A DNA stretch of 64,000 nt from a virus (Duplodnaviria > Caudoviricetes): the IMG/VR virus record IMGVR_UViG_3300050034_000334, one strand, 5' to 3'. This document shows, piece after piece, positions 13,137-57,973 of this stretch. Each line of letters starts with the position of its first letter. The stretch's first letter is position 1. Position numbers and translations under genes: made by a program. Below the pieces are notes generated by a model. That model ran no database searches, had not been told where the DNA came from, and was given only the letters and a program-made list of their open reading frames with translations.

Positions 13137-15010
13137 TTGGACACTCCAATCGGTGCGTTGGGTAGCAGTCCTCGATTGATCATCGGCCACAAGCCGATCA
13201 TTCGACCTTCATCTCTAAGGACGTGCTCCATGGATCGGGTAACTCTGACTCTTGGAGGATCTACCAACTCTCCAAGATACTCATGAATGAGGTTTTCTTT
13301 CCTGAATTGCCATAGAACATTCCAGTCTATTCCGCTGGTGATATCCTGCTGATCTTGCATCTGCTGAATCTCGTCCGCCATTCGATCAAGGTAGTATGGC
13401 AGATAGCGACCTTTGGTGGTCCGGAAGTATCCCTTGTATGCACACAGACACGACTCCATGAACCAGTGATCCATGCCCAGCAGAGGGTACTCAACTTGGA
13501 TCTCCTTGATCAGAATTTCGAGCTCTTTCTCGAGCCAAGCCCACTGCTCCTTGTTGAGTTTTTCGAAGGCCCAATCGGCTTTGCCCAGGACGATGCAGAG
13601 GCCAGCGCGTGGCGAGTCAGCTTCTTTAAGGAAGACTGTGTCAGCCTGGAGAGGCATTCCCATACAGCGAGCAAGGCACTCAGTGTAGATGTACACACTG
13701 TAACGACCGAAGCGCATGAATTGGTTCAGGGCCTTGGTCACGTTGTGGAAGTTCTCAATCTTGTTGGTGGAGGTGAGGTGCTTGGCGAAGAATTCCTCCT
13801 GGGCAGTCGAGGTCTGTTTGCCCATCTGCTTGACATAGTCCTCGAACATCTCCACGAAGTGACCCTTGAGATACTTCCGGTCCGTGTTGTACCTCAGCTT
13901 CTTCCAGTTCTCAGTATGCCAACGACGGAGCCGCCCGATGTCGATCTTCTCGAACTCAGGAAATTCCTGCATCACATAGAAGACAGAGCCGGGGTGATAG
14001 AACACTCCATACAAGTAACAAATCCAGTACTCCTGACTCTTTGACATCTCCCACCGGCGGAAGACGTAGTTCAGCAGAGCATAGTTTGGATCTATCTCCC
14101 AGGAGGCCACGGAGGATACACAGTACCTTTTGAATGAGTCACGAAGAGCCTTGCGATGGTCTCCTCCGGTCCAAATTGGGAGGTCAAGAATCACATGCTT
14201 GCTGTCAAAAGGGACCGAATGCTTGCTCATCATGACGTTCGCAATGGGAGGTCTCTCAAATCTCTTCTCAGGAGCATAGTACGTTTTGTATCTCTGAGAA
14301 CTGACGGACTTTCCTGTACCAGAGAAGGTGTATATGGTGTAAGGTTCACACTCCTGAACTGTACACTTGTGTCCCTCGAACTCGAAGGCTCTCATGATGA
14401 TGTCCTGAGTGGAAGCGAATCCTTGCATGGACAATTCAGGACAGTCAAACATCCACAAAGGTCTCAAGTGGTCCCGCATCAGATAGATGGACCCCAGATA
14501 GTCTAGGAATCCACAAGCAAAGATAGGAGGAGCCACTTCATAAACTTTTCGAAAAGCCTCAGCAATGGTGCCTTTCAATGCATGACGTAAGAATATCTCG
14601 GAGTCATTGGCGGTCTCGGTGTCGATCTTGTAATCGGCTTCGAACTCTTCCTTGGTCGCCATAGACACCAGACCGTTATGGACGATCGCCAGCTGCGGAG
14701 TGCTGAGAGGCTGAGTGTTATTGTTGTCATGCCAGTCTCCACTGGTGGAGTACCGGCAATGTCCAATCATGGTCTTCGGAATCTTGCAAGACAGATCCGT
14801 CCAGCCAGCCGTTTCCAGCAGGGCCTCAGCACAAATTGGCGCCTTGAAGGTCTTGACCTCTCCCTGTTGCCAGGTTGGACCTTCCACCCAAGACACCCCA
14901 GACGCGTGCTTCCCACGAACCTGAGCCTCAATCATCAGCCGCTCAAATACCTTGAAGGCATCGTGTGCTCGGTCAGTATTGTACAGCTTGTACCCAACGA
15001 TTCCGCACAT
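13133..15010 (-). CDS. Class II glutamine amidotransferase fused to an amino acid:DNA transferase (aGPT-Pplase2/ADDT-like) domain
   Basis: N-half MCGIVG, GHCRYST, HNG, NDSE; C-half DPNY, YNTDRKYLKGHF, FGRYS, ESCLCAYK, RYLPYYLDR. Confidence 0.75.
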   Translation of the reverse strand: MCGIVGYKLYNTDRAHDAFKVFERLMIEAQVRGKHASGVSWVEGPTWQQGEVKTFKAPICAEALLETAGWTDLSCKIPKTMIGHCRYSTSGDWHDNNNTQPLSTPQLAIVHNGLVSMATKEEFEADYKIDTETANDSEIFLRHALKGTIAEAFRKVYEVAPPIFACGFLDYLGSIYLMRDHLRPLWMFDCPELSMQGFASTQDIIMRAFEFEGHKCTVQECEPYTIYTFSGTGKSVSSQRYKTYYAPEKRFERPPIANVMMSKHSVPFDSKHVILDLPIWTGGDHRKALRDSFKRYCVSSVASWEIDPNYALLNYVFRRWEMSKSQEYWICYLYGVFYHPGSVFYVMQEFPEFEKIDIGRLRRWHTENWKKLRYNTDRKYLKGHFVEMFEDYVKQMGKQTSTAQEEFFAKHLTSTNKIENFHNVTKALNQFMRFGRYSVYIYTECLARCMGMPLQADTVFLKEADSPRAGLCIVLGKADWAFEKLNKEQWAWLEKELEILIKEIQVEYPLLGMDHWFMESCLCAYKGYFRTTKGRYLPYYLDRMADEIQQMQDQQDITSGIDWNVLWQFRKENLIHEYLGELVDPPRVRVTRSMEHVLRDEGRMIGLWPMINRGLLPNAPIGVSK

Positions 15011-15059
15011 AGATTCCTAATCGTCCCCAGTTAGTCAATACTGGAAAATCGAGGATTAT

Positions 15060-15257
15060 CTAGATTTGGGTCATCTTCTCTTGAAGAACAGCGAGCCCAT
15101 CCAGCACCATTGCCACAAGCAGCGTTTGGCGATGGACGTTCAATCTCAGAGCATGCTCTTCGATCAGATTCGCTTGCGACTCAGGAATTCGCAACGTGAA
15201 CGCCTTGAATGGTTCTTTCTTTCCCAGGTTATTCACCAGATTTTCAACGTAGCTCAT
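15060..15257 (-). CDS. Small ribbon-helix-helix-like DNA-binding protein
   Basis: KAFTLRIPESQANLIEEHALRLNVHRQTLL pattern; ATGA overlap with the Nudix gene. Confidence 0.55.
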   Translation of the reverse strand: MSYVENLVNNLGKKEPFKAFTLRIPESQANLIEEHALRLNVHRQTLLVAMVLDGLAVLQEKMTQI

Positions 15258-15709
15258 AACCACCCCATGTGTCGAAACTTCTCGATGCACGGATACCAGA
15301 TCTTGTCCTGCAGCTTCGGCAAATCTGTTACTGGGACCCACTGCCAGTCGCTACTCTTGGTTGGCTCTGTGTTGACCGGCTCGCCGCCGATCCATTCTCC
15401 GACGAAGTAGATCGTGATGTAATGCTTGCCCTGTTCCCGACTGATGTCCTCGGTGAATCCGACGAGATGGACTTTTCCCAAAGTTAGACCCGTCTCTTCT
15501 TCGGTCTCACGACGAGCCGCTTCAGATGCCAACTCGTACTTCTCTACATGACCGCCTGGTAAACTGAGGAATCCATATCCGTATTCCTTCCTGCGAATTC
15601 CCAACAGGATGTACTCCAGCCCAATCCCTTCCGGGTCTCCACCAGGAAGGTACTTGTGGACGATCATGCCGGTGCCAACACCGGGCCTCTCAATAGAGTC
15701 TGAACTCAC
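15254..15709 (-). CDS. Nudix hydrolase
   Basis: Nudix box GGHVEKYELASEAARRETEEETGL. Confidence 0.92.
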   Translation of the reverse strand: MSSDSIERPGVGTGMIVHKYLPGGDPEGIGLEYILLGIRRKEYGYGFLSLPGGHVEKYELASEAARRETEEETGLTLGKVHLVGFTEDISREQGKHYITIYFVGEWIGGEPVNTEPTKSSDWQWVPVTDLPKLQDKIWYPCIEKFRHMGWL

Positions 15710-16302
15710 TGTTTGCCTCTGGCTTTCTCTACAGTTTCCCGATCGATGGCCGGGTATTCAAAGACGATAGGCATCTTCCGCTTGGCGACTTCAACCTTGA
15801 CCCAGAGCGGATGACCTTGGAAGATCACTTGGCCGGTGCGATAGGCAATGGCGAGCACTTGTTCTTGACGAGGACCGTTGCTCTCGTATGGAACGATTAT
15901 GACACCATGATCAATGGCGATTTGTTCGTCAGTGATGTGGTAGGTGTGCTTGACCGCCAGCGGACCTTTGCTGGGCTTGAAGAGATTGCCAAATGCTGCC
16001 AGAGCCCAGGCGACCTGAAATCTCTGGTAGACTGTTCGCTTCTCAGGAAAGTTGATGAAGTCGACATATCCGAACCCAGGACGCAAGGTTTGTTCGTCGA
16101 GCCATGACTTCGCAGCAAGGAATTCCTCGATGGTCACATCACCATCAATCTTGGGTGTCGGATCCTCAGAAGTGGCACTCAAACCCAGTAGCCTTGAGGC
16201 TGTGTCCTTGAGGGCTTGAAAATTGAACCACCGGCGATATGCTTTCTCGCTGTAGTCCTCATCCGGCTTCTTCAACTGTGCTGCTGTGGCTCTCTTGAAC
16301 AT
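15706..16302 (-). CDS. Hypothetical protein
   Basis: Overlap-coupled in the minus-strand operon. Confidence 0.7.
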   Translation of the reverse strand: MFKRATAAQLKKPDEDYSEKAYRRWFNFQALKDTASRLLGLSATSEDPTPKIDGDVTIEEFLAAKSWLDEQTLRPGFGYVDFINFPEKRTVYQRFQVAWALAAFGNLFKPSKGPLAVKHTYHITDEQIAIDHGVIIVPYESNGPRQEQVLAIAYRTGQVIFQGHPLWVKVEVAKRKMPIVFEYPAIDRETVEKARGKQ

Positions 16303-25226: not shown

Positions 25227-25303
25227 TGGAGGACGGAGAGAGAATCGAACTCTCGCATTATGGGATTTGCAGTCCCACGCCTTACCGTCTTGGCTATCCG
25301 TCC
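25227..25303 (-). tRNA. tRNA-Cys(GCA)
   Basis: Cloverleaf, loop CTGCAAA, GTTCGATT, encoded CCA. Confidence 0.93.
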
Positions 25304-25310
25304 TCAATTT

Positions 25311-25385
25311 TGGCACCGCCGAAGGGATTCGAACCCCTACACCTGGCTCCAAAGGCCAGAGTCCTGCCATTAAACGACGGCGGTG
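25311..25385 (-). tRNA. tRNA-Gln(TTG)
   Basis: Cloverleaf, loop CTTTGGA, GTTCGAAT, encoded CCA. Confidence 0.93.
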
Positions 25386-25395
25386 TATTTCTAAC

Positions 25396-25605
25396 TCATA
25401 CTGATACAAAATGACACGAGTTGTGCCACTCTCTTGACATGAACGAACCCTTGGGCCGGTCAGGATTCTCAACCAGCAGACTGACCCCTCCACTATCTTC
25501 GTTGTGAGTGTCTCGAACGACGTAAAATTCGGGTGCAGGCCGCCAGTACACAAGATCCTTCGCGGCCTCCTTCATCCGAACTTTGTCGCCCTTCTTGTAT
25601 TCCAT
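25396..25605 (-). CDS. Hypothetical protein inside the tRNA array
   Basis: 69 aa, directly after the endonuclease stop. Confidence 0.6.
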   Translation of the reverse strand: MEYKKGDKVRMKEAAKDLVYWRPAPEFYVVRDTHNEDSGGVSLLVENPDRPKGSFMSREWHNSCHFVSV

Positions 25606-25606
25606 C

Positions 25607-26524
25607 TCACACCTTCATAAATTTCTTGTCTCTCAATTCTTGCATGCTCAATTTCTTCCTAGAAAGTCCGAATTTCTTGGCCCATTCATGAACTGTCATA
25701 GCACTGACGCCGTAGATATTTCCAATTTGGCGATAACCAGTGTGTTCTAAGTGAGTTCTAAGTTCTTCAACCGGCGGAATTTTCTTCATTAGACCACAAG
25801 CTGAACTGCAGTGAACTACTGTTTTGTCCCTAGTCACGAATTCTTTCTCGCACTTAGGACAAACTCGGACAAATTCAGAAATTGCACCTCTCCCTGGCAA
25901 CCAGCCTAGACGAATTCTCTCTTTAGCCTCACTCTCTGGCACCGAAATAACCTCTGAATTTTTGTACATCCACATATTTCCAAAAGAGTGATTATTTTCT
26001 CCCATTGCGAGCCTAGACATCTCTTTTCTACATTCAAGAGTATGATGCTTACCTCTACGAGATTCTGCCAATCTCCTACAAGCAGCTAGAAGTTTTGGAG
26101 TAACCCGCTTGGGAAGGACTCTAATCCTGTTCCACTTCTCCATAAATTCTCTAGCAAATTCAGGATCTCGTCGCCTTCTTTCTTGAACCTTCTGAGAGCC
26201 CAGTCTTCCCCAGGATACTCTGTCAAATTTGAAGTGAGTGTTGACGTAGTCAAACCCACCAGATCCCCCTTTTCTCAGATTCATACAAAGAGGATCTTTC
26301 CGATGAAGTTCTACTACCTCATCTTCTTTCTTCCAGGCTTCCTCCTGAGTTTCAAACTCGAAGAGAATTTCTTTCTTAAAACTTGCTGGACCATACTTTG
26401 CAACGGCTCGTATGATGTAAGTACCAGAACCAAGATACTCATCATTTGGGTTATCAGTCTTATGAACACCCAAGTAGAACTTGCCGTTGACCAAATTCAC
26501 TGTTTTGTATACAGTGTATATCAT
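25607..26524 (-). CDS. GIY-YIG homing endonuclease inside the tRNA array
   Basis: MIYTVYKTVNLVNGKFYLGVHKT...YLGSG; GGAGG RBS. Confidence 0.88.
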   Translation of the reverse strand: MIYTVYKTVNLVNGKFYLGVHKTDNPNDEYLGSGTYIIRAVAKYGPASFKKEILFEFETQEEAWKKEDEVVELHRKDPLCMNLRKGGSGGFDYVNTHFKFDRVSWGRLGSQKVQERRRRDPEFAREFMEKWNRIRVLPKRVTPKLLAACRRLAESRRGKHHTLECRKEMSRLAMGENNHSFGNMWMYKNSEVISVPESEAKERIRLGWLPGRGAISEFVRVCPKCEKEFVTRDKTVVHCSSACGLMKKIPPVEELRTHLEHTGYRQIGNIYGVSAMTVHEWAKKFGLSRKKLSMQELRDKKFMKV

Positions 26525-26568
26525 GAACCCTCCTGTACCCTCTACTTGGATACTGGAAGTCACGAAAG

Positions 26569-26641
<73 letters not shown>

Positions 26642-26656
26642 ACTACTTCTAAACTC

Positions 26657-26738
26657 TGGAGCCTTGGGAGGGACTCGAACCCCCGTTGTGTTATAGCAGA
26701 TTACAGATCTGCTGCTGTCGCCGCTGAGCCACCAAGGC
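26657..26738 (-). tRNA. Atypical tRNA, most likely Thr(TGT); Tyr(GTA) register possible
   Basis: Stem gcaga/tctgc, loop TCTGTAA, 11-nt variable region, G1-C72, C2-G71, U73, CCA. Confidence 0.75.
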
Positions 26739-27311
26739 TAGTCTCGTGACTTGAATCCTTTGTTGCATAGGACTCTTATCAGATGTTAACTTACAGTCTC
26801 CATTTACTGCATTTCTTCCTCTTCCCCAGTTTAGTGCTTTGTACGTTGGAGTGATCGCATGACAACATGGACAGAGCAATAACACGTTATCCGGAGAGTT
26901 ATCCTTCCAATCTCCATTCTCGTGTTCTAGTTCAATAGGTGCAATTCCAGTTACCAGATTGACTTCACACCATCCACAACGCTGACATTTATTTCCAAAC
27001 AAGTGAATGAGAGCTCGCTTAGTCCTTCCGTGAGTTTCTTCCTTTGGAGATAGCGTTCTTTCCAGCCAACGCTTAATCCAAATTGAAAGTTCGTAGCTGC
27101 TCTTACATTTGTTAGAGCAGTAAGTATTAGCAGATTTGATACCAGTTCCACAACCAGGACAAAACTTTACGACCTTTTCTGGTTTCTTCTTCACCAACCC
27201 CAGTTTGGTCAGATGATATCGGACATTGGTTTGACTTGCACCTAGTTGTTCCGCTATCTTCCAACTGCTAAATCCTGCTGTCCACAACCGAGTTAGCTCA
27301 ACTATATCCAT
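26691..27311 (-). CDS. HNH homing endonuclease inside the tRNA array (3' end runs into the next tRNA)
   Basis: CQRCG...LEHENGDWKDNSPDNVLLLCPCCH. Confidence 0.85.
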   Translation of the reverse strand: MDIVELTRLWTAGFSSWKIAEQLGASQTNVRYHLTKLGLVKKKPEKVVKFCPGCGTGIKSANTYCSNKCKSSYELSIWIKRWLERTLSPKEETHGRTKRALIHLFGNKCQRCGWCEVNLVTGIAPIELEHENGDWKDNSPDNVLLLCPCCHAITPTYKALNWGRGRNAVNGDCKLTSDKSPMQQRIQVTRLALVAQRRQQQICNLL

Positions 27312-27346
27312 ACCCAGATTCCTAAAGTCGGAAAACAGGTGAGCTA

Positions 27347-27423
27347 TGGAGCACCCCATCGGATTCGAACCGATGTCCACTGAGTACGAAACAGTGATCC
27401 TAAACCAACTAGACGAGAGGTGC
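27347..27423 (-). tRNA. tRNA-Thr(CGT)
   Basis: Cloverleaf, loop TTCGTAC with a U31-U39 mismatch, CCA. Confidence 0.82.
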
Positions 27424-27437
27424 ATACTACGAAACTT

Positions 27438-27513
27438 TGGTGGACGAGAATGGTCTTGAACCATCCACCTTTCCCTTATCAGGGGAATGCTCTACCACAT
27501 GAGCTACTCGTCC
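27438..27513 (-). tRNA. tRNA-Ile(GAT)
   Basis: Cloverleaf, loop CTGATAA, CCA. Confidence 0.93.
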
Positions 27514-27525
27514 ATTTTGACTCCC

Positions 27526-27557
27526 AAAACACGAATGCCGCCCTTATTCTGGCGGCA
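27526..27557 (-). terminator. Attenuator terminator hairpin upstream of the tRNA array
   Basis: tgccgcc-8nt-ggcggca followed by ttcgtgtttt; its 5' arm can instead pair with leader segment 27599-27607. Confidence 0.7.
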
Positions 27558-27582
27558 GATCATACGAGATTTTGTTGTTCTC

Positions 27583-27657
27583 TTACTCTCGCAGACTCCC
27601 ACCGCCACCCGTTTGGGTGCATGTAATGGTGATGCTAGTTTGCAACGTCTGCTTCAT
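27583..27657 (-). CDS. Thr/Ile/Gln/Cys-rich leader peptide MKQTLQTSITITCTQTGGGGSLRE
   Basis: Hand translation; thrL-like composition; ATG 7 nt after the promoter -10-like box. Confidence 0.75.
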   Translation of the reverse strand: MKQTLQTSITITCTQTGGGGSLRE

Positions 27658-27664
27658 GATTTGA

Positions 27665-27693
27665 TGATACCTCAACTTTTCCCATTCCGGGAA
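27665..27693 (-). promoter_or_regulatory. Promoter motif TTCCCGG-N16-GTATCA
   Basis: Same architecture as the copies at 54150 and 57945. Confidence 0.65.
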
Positions 27694-28237: not shown

Positions 28238-28921
28238 TTACATTAGGGTACTTCTCAACATTCGTTCTCGCTCCCGTCTAGAATGCTGAGCCTCAGATAG
28301 TTTAGCACGAACTTTCGTTGATCTCAAAGCAGTGCCTGCGTTTTCTAGACGCTTCGAGGACTCCTTGAAATTTGAACTATGATAGTAACAAACCGGAGAA
28401 CAGAATAACCGACTATTTCTTTTGGAGAATGGTACGGAAAAAGGTCTGCTGCATATAAGGCAAATCTTAGTTAGTGGTGGATTGCCAACTCCTTTTTTGG
28501 CATCACTTATCCTTTTACCCATCAATTTTCTAGTATCAGCGTTGGCAGGATTTGCATGCCATGATCTACGAGTAGTACTCAGTAGTTGACGAGTTGCTTC
28601 AGAATGAGGTCCAGTGAATCCCTCACCACCCTTACAAATGTTGTAGCCGTATTCAGGATCTCGAGATCTAAGGAACTCTATAAATTCCTTCTCTCTTTGA
28701 TCCAGTTCTTCCCTGGTTTCAATATCTGAAAGAAGAGCGTGAATGCTCCACAAGGAGGGATCTGGGTACTTCCTCATCGAATTGTAGAGATAGGATCTTC
28801 CGTTTCTTTGATGGCGAGCATCCCAAAATTTACCCTTGAGATAGGCTTTCAAATCCTTTCCCTTGTGCTGACCTACATAGTATTTCCCAGTGACGTGATT
28901 CACTATCAAATAGATGAACAT
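28238..28921 (-). CDS. GIY-YIG homing endonuclease
   Basis: MFIYLIVNHVTGKYYVGQ...GYNICKGGEG; paralog of 449..1153. Confidence 0.88.
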   Translation of the reverse strand: MFIYLIVNHVTGKYYVGQHKGKDLKAYLKGKFWDARHQRNGRSYLYNSMRKYPDPSLWSIHALLSDIETREELDQREKEFIEFLRSRDPEYGYNICKGGEGFTGPHSEATRQLLSTTRRSWHANPANADTRKLMGKRISDAKKGVGNPPLTKICLICSRPFSVPFSKRNSRLFCSPVCYYHSSNFKESSKRLENAGTALRSTKVRAKLSEAQHSRRERERMLRSTLM

Positions 28922-56580: not shown

Positions 56581-57304
56581 CAGTAATCGAAAACTATCTG
56601 AGGAGACTAAAGAGAAAATTAGAAGAACTCTTCAATCCAAGTATCCTGTCAGAAAATGCCCTATATGTGAAAAATTGTTCCGTCGTAAACAAGAGTACTG
56701 CAGCAGGTCTTGTGACATGAAATCTAGAATGAGAGATCCTGTCCAGAGGAAAGCAGTGTCTGATTTTATGAAATCTGCTCCTCATAAGGGCTGGAAATCG
56801 AGATCGATGTCCTCCTATGCAGAGCTGTTTTGGATTGACATTCTCGCTAGAGAACAAGTCAGCTTTATCCGTGAAAAAGTCATGTCAAAGAAGAGCTTAG
56901 GAATTGAATCCTCCGGAAGCTATTTCCTCGACTTTTTCTTTCCTCAATTGAACCTAGATTTAGAAATAGATGGTAGCCAACATCTCAATCCTGTGGCAAA
57001 AACCAAAGATGACGAACGTGATTTAATCCTAGAAAGAAATGGGATTCATGTTGTGAGAATGCCTTGGAAGGGATTGACCAGACATCTAAAATTCACATTT
57101 TCACAAGTGGAAGAAGTTCTTATAATGGTCGGGGTGAGGCATTTCGAAAGCCCAACCTCATGTTCCCAAAACATGTGCTCTACCCTTGAGCTACACCCCG
57201 ACATGTTAAACCTTTTCTGCGTGCCGGATTTGACCGGCGTTTCCGTCCTCAATGGACGGCGTGCTGTCCGCTTACGGAATCCTGCCCAGGCGATGCGTCT
57301 ATAG
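56486..57304 (+). CDS. Vsr/DUF559-like PD-(D/E)XK endonuclease with zinc fingers; frame runs on antisense through tRNA-Pro
   Basis: CSRSC repeats; YFLDFF...LEIDGSQH...DDERD...GIHVVR. Confidence 0.75.
   Translation: MLHCMECSYCHTNPCRPGFDTCSRSCASSRANSNRKLSEETKEKIRRTLQSKYPVRKCPICEKLFRRKQEYCSRSCDMKSRMRDPVQRKAVSDFMKSAPHKGWKSRSMSSYAELFWIDILAREQVSFIREKVMSKKSLGIESSGSYFLDFFFPQLNLDLEIDGSQHLNPVAKTKDDERDLILERNGIHVVRMPWKGLTRHLKFTFSQVEEVLIMVGVRHFESPTSCSQNMCSTLELHPDMLNLFCVPDLTGVSVLNGRRAVRLRNPAQAMRL
57126..57200 (-). tRNA. tRNA-Pro(TGG)
   Basis: Cloverleaf, loop TTTGGGA, CCA. Confidence 0.88.
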
Positions 57305-57388
57305 CCACAAAGTCCAGACATTCTACCTGCTGCCCTTTGTTCTCACCCGTCGGCAAGATCTCAGGCTCTATTGCACTATCGCAAACTT

Positions 57389-57465
57389 TGGTCGGGATAA
57401 CTGGATTCGAACCAGCGACCTCACCCACCCCAAGGGTGCGCTCTACCAGGCTGAGCCATATCCCG
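57389..57465 (-). tRNA. tRNA-Pro(GGG)
   Basis: Cloverleaf, loop TTGGGGT, CCA. Confidence 0.93.
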
Positions 57466-57562
57466 ACAAACTGTGCCGCGTCCGATGTTGTCTCTTGTCA
57501 ACTTGAGGCTGGTTGGCTCTTCAAGTCACATCCTAGTGCGGCTTACTACGCTCTTCAAACTT

Positions 57563-57637
57563 TGGTGGACTCGAACGGGATTGAACCGCCGACGCCAACC
57601 TCTTCAGGGTTGCGCTCTACCACTGAGCTACGAGTCC
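57563..57637 (-). tRNA. tRNA-Phe(GAA)
   Basis: Cloverleaf, loop CTGAAGA, CCA. Confidence 0.93.
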
Positions 57638-57652
57638 ACATACAGCAAAAAT

Positions 57653-57729
57653 TGGTCGGCGTGGTCAGATTTGAACTGACGGCCCCTTGTTCCCGAAACA
57701 AGTGCGCTACCAGGCTGCGCTACACACCG
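57653..57729 (-). tRNA. tRNA-Pro(CGG)
   Basis: Cloverleaf, loop TTCGGGA, CCA. Confidence 0.93.
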
Positions 57730-57840: not shown

Positions 57841-57900
57841 TTAACCCTCCGCGAGCCTTGCAGGTTGCGGTCGAAATCGAAATGTTGGTCGCATTCTCAT
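57841..57900 (-). CDS. Pro/Phe/Arg-rich putative leader peptide MRMRPTFRFRPQPARLAEG
   Basis: Hand translation; ATG 7 nt after the promoter -10-like box; precedes the Pro/Phe tRNA array. Confidence 0.6.
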   Translation of the reverse strand: MRMRPTFRFRPQPARLAEG

Positions 57901-57907
57901 GATCTCA

Positions 57908-57973
57908 CTCTACTGACCTGGTTCGAAAACCGGGTACAAATCGATGATACCTCAGTTTTTGGAAATACGGGAA
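57908..57973 (-). promoter_or_regulatory. Tandem promoters: TACCCGG-N16-GTAGAG (57908-57936) and TTCCCGT-N16-GTATCA (57945-57973)
   Basis: Both motif classes, each with an exact 16-nt spacer. Confidence 0.7.

Follow-up and report, generated by a model that had tools for sequence, protein, structure and literature searches.

A candidate leader-peptide attenuator ahead of a tRNA operon in a peat-soil jumbo phage, and its counterparts at other phage tRNA arrays

How phages dose the tRNAs that they encode, and why they carry tRNA genes at all, is an old open question, for which the current ideas are codon-usage compensation and escape from tRNA-targeting defences. The window analyzed here, a stretch of 64,000 nt (64 kb) from a peat-soil jumbo phage (IMG/VR record IMGVR_UViG_3300050034_000334), poses the question at a single locus. 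On its minus strand, a promoter-like motif is followed by a short open reading frame (sORF), a terminator hairpin, a U-rich tail and six tRNA genes, and the central codons of the sORF are largely those that the six tRNAs read. Does the phage let its ribosomes decide when these tRNAs are made? We consider it likely that the locus is a ribosome-mediated (leader-peptide) transcription attenuator gating the tRNA operon, and that the phage probably makes the tRNAs of this array only when ribosomes run short of them. The support for this reading is comparative. The elements of the leader, which we call leader A, are the following.

27693..27688, minus strand: −35-like hexamer TTCCCG, putative promoter element
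27674..27663, minus strand: 12-mer TGAGGTATCATC with the −10-like TATCAT (27669..27664), present in 2 copies in the 64 kb
27657..27583, minus strand: leader sORF A, 24 codons plus stop, MKQTLQTSITITCTQTGGGGSLRE, with the ATG at 27657 and the TAA at 27585..27583
27619..27606, minus strand: "1:2" anti-antiterminator hairpin CACCC-AAAC-GGGTG, inside the sORF
27607..27599, minus strand: antiterminator 5' strand TGGCGGTGG, codons 17-20, forming 9 bp with 27558..27550
27558..27550, minus strand: antiterminator 3' strand CTGCCGCCA, overlapping the terminator 5' arm
27557..27536, minus strand: intrinsic terminator TGCCGCC-8 nt-GGCGGCA, 7 bp with 6 G-C pairs
27535..27526, minus strand: U-rich tail TTCGTGTTTT from the terminator scan, with an interrupted U-tract

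A preliminary description of this DNA had placed a promoter-like motif and a 25-codon sORF (stop codon included) at these positions, and we find both there. The two hexamers are separated by an 18-nt spacer, and TATCAT lies 6 nt from the ATG. The only 2 copies of TGAGGTATCATC in the 64 kb each lie upstream of a tRNA array; at least two matches to it occurred in 5 of 100 shuffles. A simple sigma-70 scan did not call the motif, and the transcription start is guessed from the motif itself. This shared motif is our sole reason for regarding TTCCCG-N18-TATCAT as a putative promoter. When IMG/VR was scanned with it, 35 of the 36 matches were unrelated, and the remaining one, on contig L027, was the only relative. 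The genes upstream of leader A run on the same strand, so read-in transcription may also occur. No Shine-Dalgarno sequence precedes the sORF at normal spacing, and its translation would presumably be leaderless or poorly initiated.

The tRNA genes that follow (array A, 25227..27513, minus strand) were called by ARAGORN, with endonuclease-like ORFs inserted between them.

27513..27438, minus strand: tRNA-Ile(GAT)
27423..27347, minus strand: tRNA-Thr(CGT)
26738..26657, minus strand: tRNA-Thr(TGT)
26641..26568, minus strand: tRNA-Thr(GGT)
25384..25311, minus strand: tRNA-Gln(TTG)
25303..25227, minus strand: tRNA-Cys(GCA)

These are the six tRNAs named previously, directly downstream and on the same strand, and our recount of the leader agrees with the earlier one: 12 of the 14 codons from 3 to 16 are cognate to the six tRNAs, the eight codons 9-16 are cognate without interruption, and each of the four Thr codons occurs. 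We counted the ten codons read by the array A tRNAs in every stop-free 14-codon window of the six frames. The 12 of 14 in leader A is the unique maximum of the 64 kb, with 10 of 14 as the next best value; in long ORFs the same ten codons make up 18% of all codons. Leader A covers six of the six anticodons in its array (P = 0.017 against random leaders with the phage's codon usage).

Array A has some peculiarities of its own. At 82 nt, tRNA-Thr(TGT) (26657-26738, minus strand) is unusually long for a class I tRNA. The segment 26412-26812 over tRNA-Thr(GGT) shows very high summed contig depth and many loose ends in four peat/permafrost RNA libraries, and other organisms in these peat/permafrost samples, possibly the host group, have tRNA-Thr genes at least 90% similar to the phage's. 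Endonuclease-like ORFs are found at 25607-26626, 26691-27464 and 28238-28921 (all minus strand) as well as at L002:12254-12961 and L002:13802-14449. Those between tRNA genes carry GIY-YIG-like N-termini, NUMOD3 and zinc-finger/HTH features, and their sites differ among near-identical contigs. Homing-endonuclease traffic appears to be concentrated at the tRNA arrays.

The preliminary description had also proposed three mutually exclusive pairings in the leader RNA. The 1:2 hairpin forms in the minimum-free-energy fold, in which free leader A adopts the CACCC/GGGTG hairpin together with the terminator (z = −3.2). The 2:3 antiterminator pairing is real, with 7 Watson-Crick and 2 G-U pairs among its 9 bp and a duplex energy of −14.1 kcal/mol, compared with −9.2 ± 2.2 kcal/mol for shuffles of the sORF end (p = 0.024). 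The 3:4 terminator and its U-rich tail were called independently by a terminator scan. The hairpin begins 25 nt past the stop codon, 12 nt separate the U-rich tail from tRNA-Ile(GAT), and the sORF as a whole ends 69 nt from that gene on the same strand. The region shows no enrichment of terminator-like sites, with 2 observed and 3.4 expected. A search with Rfam covariance models returned no Thr_leader, other leader or T-box match, and gave only two sub-threshold, unrelated matches at E ≤ 10.

We modeled the effect of a ribosome by masking 28 nt around each A-site codon and folding the remainder at equilibrium. With the ribosome at codons 11-13, the center of the cognate run, the antiterminator reaches only P 0.34-0.50, and the terminator still holds P 0.4-0.6 at the best stall sites. 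For every position between codon 14 and the stop, the antiterminator drops to 0.00 and the terminator to no less than P 0.94. The equilibrium switch of leader A is partial and weak.

The other copy of the 12-mer marks a second module in the window.

57973..57841, minus strand: module B, with TTCCCG at 57973..57968, the 12-mer motif at 57954..57943 and an sORF at 57900..57841, MRMRPTFRFRPQPARLAEG
57126..57729, minus strand: array B, tRNA-Pro(CGG), Phe(GAA), Pro(GGG) and Pro(TGG), called by ARAGORN

Here TTCCCG lies at the same 18-nt distance from the 12-mer motif as in leader A. Leader B contains CCA, CCG and CCT once each and TTT twice, and covers four of the four anticodons of its array (P = 0.03). 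Its plain count of 5 cognate codons in 9 is not rare by itself, and a terminator search found no convincing intrinsic terminator for the module; for both reasons, module B is only partly supportive. Leader B (57841-57900, minus strand) also contains three CGA codons, each adjoining a Pro or Phe codon, and array B has no tRNA-Arg; CGA is the rarest Arg codon of the phage, at 4.9 per 1000. In the near-identical 55-kb contig G002, about 490 nt with a reverse-strand ORF (L027:8430-8915) lie between leader B and tRNA-Pro(CGG), directly after the leader's GGGTGAG, and a terminator, if one was once present at that site, would be disrupted by the insertion.

Contigs nearly identical to the window offer a first comparison. 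The sORF of leader A is identical in all 12 of them, so module A itself displays no co-variation at this distance. The same six anticodons follow it although the insertions differ, and the tRNA-Ile gene behind the invariant leader has different sequences in L001 and L002. As far as these contigs go, this shows that the leader cassette is kept. Most of them have one T more in the U-rich tail. Used as queries, the neighboring 488-aa, 82-aa and helicase proteins found only near-identical contigs, and a nucleotide search in phages gave generic tRNA matches only.

The leader A region is also contained in peat and permafrost metatranscriptomes, as assembled contigs. Contig breaks within it (27558-27615 in library X1 and 27595-27686 in X2) were considered as transcript ends and set aside, since contigs give no starts, ends or strand. 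In permafrost RNA library X4, a 349-nt contig matches only 27526-27674, a segment bounded by the end of the U-tract on one side and the first base of the promoter motif on the other, and both of its flanks are unlike the window. This contig suggests that the leader cassette may be kept in a diverged context.

The contig G002 carries leader B nearly unchanged and, in addition, a third array of ten tRNAs (Val, Gly, Asp, Ala and Glu) that jointly read all 16 GNN codons. The sORF in front of it, leader C (L063:2868-2972), has GNN at 18 of 20 consecutive codons and serves ten of the ten anticodons. It is followed by a 10-bp terminator with a T-run that ends just before the first tRNA, and the last third of the sORF holds a perfect 10-bp antiterminator. 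In masked folding, the antiterminator has P of about 0.9 for stalls at most of codons 2-24, with exceptions at codons 4-6 and 24 (0.66-0.76) and at codons 20-21, where the terminator is favored; for most later positions up to the stop, and for the free RNA, the terminator has P > 0.9. Within this model, the computed switch of leader C is sharp and clean.

The nearest cultured relative is the Tunturiibacter phage Tunturi_5 (PP885688, 309 kb), whose helicase is 52% identical and whose host is an acidobacterium (Acidobacteriota) from tundra soil; Tunturi 5 and Tunturiibacter psychrotolerans X4BP1 form a cultured phage/host pair (PMC11924767). The genome contains about 40 tRNA genes in three regions, each of which stands behind an sORF and a strong terminator.

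Leu/Cys/Tyr/Ser tRNAs: leader codons 4-18 are only Leu, Cys, Ser and Tyr
Asn?/Gln/Gly/Thr/Pro/His/Ala/Phe tRNAs (module T2): leader rich in exactly these, with the first tRNA taken as Asn from the Tunturi paper's count and homologous arrays
Trp/Asp/Met/Lys/Val/Arg/Glu/Ile/Gly tRNAs: leader is the annotated 49-aa ORF308, 77% cognate over the whole peptide at the amino-acid level

A scan with the Tunturi RtcB protein revealed two more members of the lineage, L079 and L080, with five more modules. These phages distribute their tRNAs differently among their arrays. The tRNA-Cys gene belongs to array A in our phage and to the Leu/Ser/Tyr array in Tunturi_5, where the leader has two Cys codons; the Cys codons follow the gene. 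The tRNAs that form one Thr/Gln/Pro/Phe/Ala/Gly block in Tunturi_5 are here distributed over A, B and part of C, and the leaders are divided to match. In L080, the array headed by Trp has no Asp or Glu tRNA and an additional Thr tRNA; Asp and Glu codons are missing from its leader, which contains three Thr codons. On this comparison, leader composition is seen to track array composition where the tRNAs are partitioned differently.

Full-length equilibrium folding of module T1 lets the 11-bp terminator win at every ribosome position, and equilibrium models would thus understate any kinetic switch. Tunturi_5 also has a gene for a tRNA nucleotidyltransferase between two of its tRNA regions and one for an RtcB-type ligase inside the second (L078:4136-5584 and 14763-15944), which fits an investment by the phage in tRNA repair and supply.

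Altogether, four phage genomes or contigs of the lineage show this design at 10 further tRNA arrays. The expectation that leader codons at other arrays would follow the content of those arrays was borne out against permuted controls. At the amino-acid level, across 11 modules, 64 of 67 amino acids that have a tRNA in an array are present in its own leader, compared with 73 of 153 of the remaining amino acids (Fisher 4e-13), and when leaders and arrays were re-paired at random, 1 of 200,000 permutations reached the observed sum. At the anticodon level, each of six leaders has its highest z-score with its own array (2.8-4.2), the true assignment ranking 1 of 720, and 57 of the 59 anticodons are covered. 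The complementarity of the sORF end to the terminator 5' arm likewise exceeds chance: the duplex is above shuffles in 9 of 11 modules at p ≤ 0.066, with a combined p of 1.2e-8. Modules T3 and L080-2 show no significant antiterminator in the same test.

A comparable arrangement is found in the unrelated Caulobacter phage phiCbK (JX100813), whose host belongs to the Alphaproteobacteria and in which promoter, sORF and terminator stand before tRNA sub-arrays much as in leader A. The record annotates terminators before the sub-arrays as well as a hypothetical protein, and two of the three modules that we checked fit the design. The clearest is the sORF at L142:4842-4940, which contains Phe, Val, Ile, Gln and Gly codons and is followed by tRNAs for exactly these; a TTGACA-N17-TAGGGT promoter sequence lies 7 nt 5' of the ATG, the stop codon is 25 nt from the annotated terminator, and the antiterminator has 11 bp (p = 0.001). 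The gp083 frame before the Pro/Lys/Leu/Ser tRNAs is less clean, with Ala and Thr abundant alongside its cognate residues (Leu, Ser, Lys, Pro); the third module, for Glu/Asp, is weak. The phiCbK genome paper mentions neither leaders nor attenuation. Seven arrays in unrelated RtcB-encoding phage contigs gave no matched leader in a crude 12-codon scan of low power; that scan yields p = 0.03-0.05 even for true modules with large codon sets, so this result is weak evidence of absence.

What the sORFs do could differ from what we propose. They may be translated sensors of the same tRNAs whose output differs from the classical antitermination upon stalling. Candidate outputs are termination by Rho, protection of the untranslated tRNA transcript through coupling, an effect on how the RNA is processed or how stable it is, and a switch of the opposite sign. 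A matched sORF without an intrinsic terminator in module B, the behavior of modules T3 and L080-2, and the partial computed switch of leader A all speak for such an output. Against it, a canonical hairpin and U-tract stand 20-31 nt past the stop codon in 10 of 11 modules, mostly at 24-25 nt, and, over all modules together, the 3' end of the sORF is more complementary to the 5' arm of the terminator than expected by chance. At this distance, a ribosome at the stop codon would mask the antiterminator strand and leave the terminator untouched, which would fix the sign of the switch: fast decoding terminates and stalling reads through. We regard an output of another kind as unlikely.

More improbable still, and quite doubtful in our view, is that the leader RNA senses the tRNAs directly, without ribosomes, by codon-anticodon pairing in the manner of a T-box specifier. 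Leader codons are indeed complementary to every downstream anticodon, but the matching triplets all fall in one frame that runs from ATG to stop, with the MK- starts typical of leader peptides; there is no match to a T-box or any other Rfam family, and one short RNA would have to sense up to 15 anticodons. We give least credence of all to a chance frame whose hairpin is the terminator of the upstream late genes, or to small proteins with a function of their own, to which the lack of enrichment of terminator-like sites, the Thr-rich stretches common in the phage's structural proteins and the annotation of ORF308 (Tunturi_5) and gp083 (phiCbK) as hypothetical proteins might point, but against which stand the unique 12-of-14 maximum in 64 kb, the own-array match reached in a single permutation of 200,000 with its Fisher value of 4e-13, and peptide sequences that are not conserved across the lineage while their composition follows the arrays.

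Under the attenuation reading, the locus would work as follows. Transcription would begin at the TTCCCG-N18-TATCAT element, and the first 75 nt would encode the 24-codon leader, whose central codons are read by the Ile, three Thr, Gln and Cys tRNAs downstream. If decoding is fast, the ribosome would reach the stop codon and cover the G-rich segment 27607..27599, the terminator at 27557..27536 would form, and RNA polymerase would halt 13 nt short of tRNA-Ile. If any cognate aminoacyl-tRNA is scarce, the ribosome would stall at about codons 9-13 and mask the CACC(C) strand; the freed G-rich segment could then pair with the 5' arm of the terminator and polymerase would enter the tRNA genes. We infer, in other words, that stalling causes readthrough and that shortage of the cognate tRNAs is the physiological trigger. 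The tRNA products would in turn relieve the stall, a negative feedback on decoding capacity. With less confidence than for leader A itself, we think it reasonably likely that phages of unrelated lineages (Acidobacteriota jumbo phages and the Caulobacter phiCbK-like phages) use multivalent leader-peptide attenuators of this kind as decoding-capacity sensors, one per tRNA block.

If this is true, a leader that reads the very tRNAs it gates would feed the speed of decoding directly back to the supply of tRNA. Each tRNA block would be transcribed only when ribosomes stall on the codons that it serves, making the supply self-tuning, and the splitting of arrays into blocks and the terminators before tRNA genes would be explained. 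The response would extend automatically to host tRNA depletion or cleavage; a link to anticodon nucleases is speculation. Synthetic biology, too, would gain natural sensors of several codons at once. The idea can be tested directly in Tunturi 5 with its cultured host, and phiCbK with Caulobacter is a standard laboratory system.

To our knowledge, examples of leader-peptide control logic had until now been limited to amino-acid and synthetase genes. The preliminary description knew of no case for tRNA operons, and our full-text searches, which included the Tunturi and phiCbK genome papers and an attenuation survey, likewise found no description of leader-peptide attenuation of tRNA genes. Its appeal to the thrL/trpL logic holds at the level of sequence: the parts stand in the right order, they recur at 10 further arrays, and leader composition appears to track the arrays. 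As in the thrL, trpL, hisL, leuL, pheL and ilvL leaders, a short ORF starting MK- is followed by a run of regulatory codons. In leader A the run is of Thr/Ile codons, as in ThrL, and the Gly codons after it form a G-rich RNA segment that pairs back with the ACC-rich stretch. As in leader-peptide attenuators generally, antiterminator and intrinsic terminator compete for the latter's 5' arm, and the stop codon is sited so that a terminating ribosome masks the antiterminator; as in the thr and ilv leaders, several amino acids would be sensed together. The mechanism class is therefore classical. What is new is that tRNA genes are the regulated target and that up to 15 anticodons are sampled in one leader. 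In the thrL/trpL class, the regulated genes serve biosynthesis or transport or encode synthetases, whereas here they are tRNAs, and the product sensed would be a tRNA rather than an amino acid. The phage leaders sample up to nine amino acids and 15 anticodons about once each, unlike the long one-codon runs of that class, and leader A differs from thrL in its phage context and in lacking sequence homology to it (no Rfam Thr_leader match). T-box riboswitches also link expression to the state of one particular tRNA by choosing between terminator and antiterminator. A T-box, however, makes direct contact with a single uncharged tRNA, and the genes under its control are those for synthetases or amino acids, whereas here we propose that an in-frame sORF is translated to read the tRNAs whose genes it precedes.
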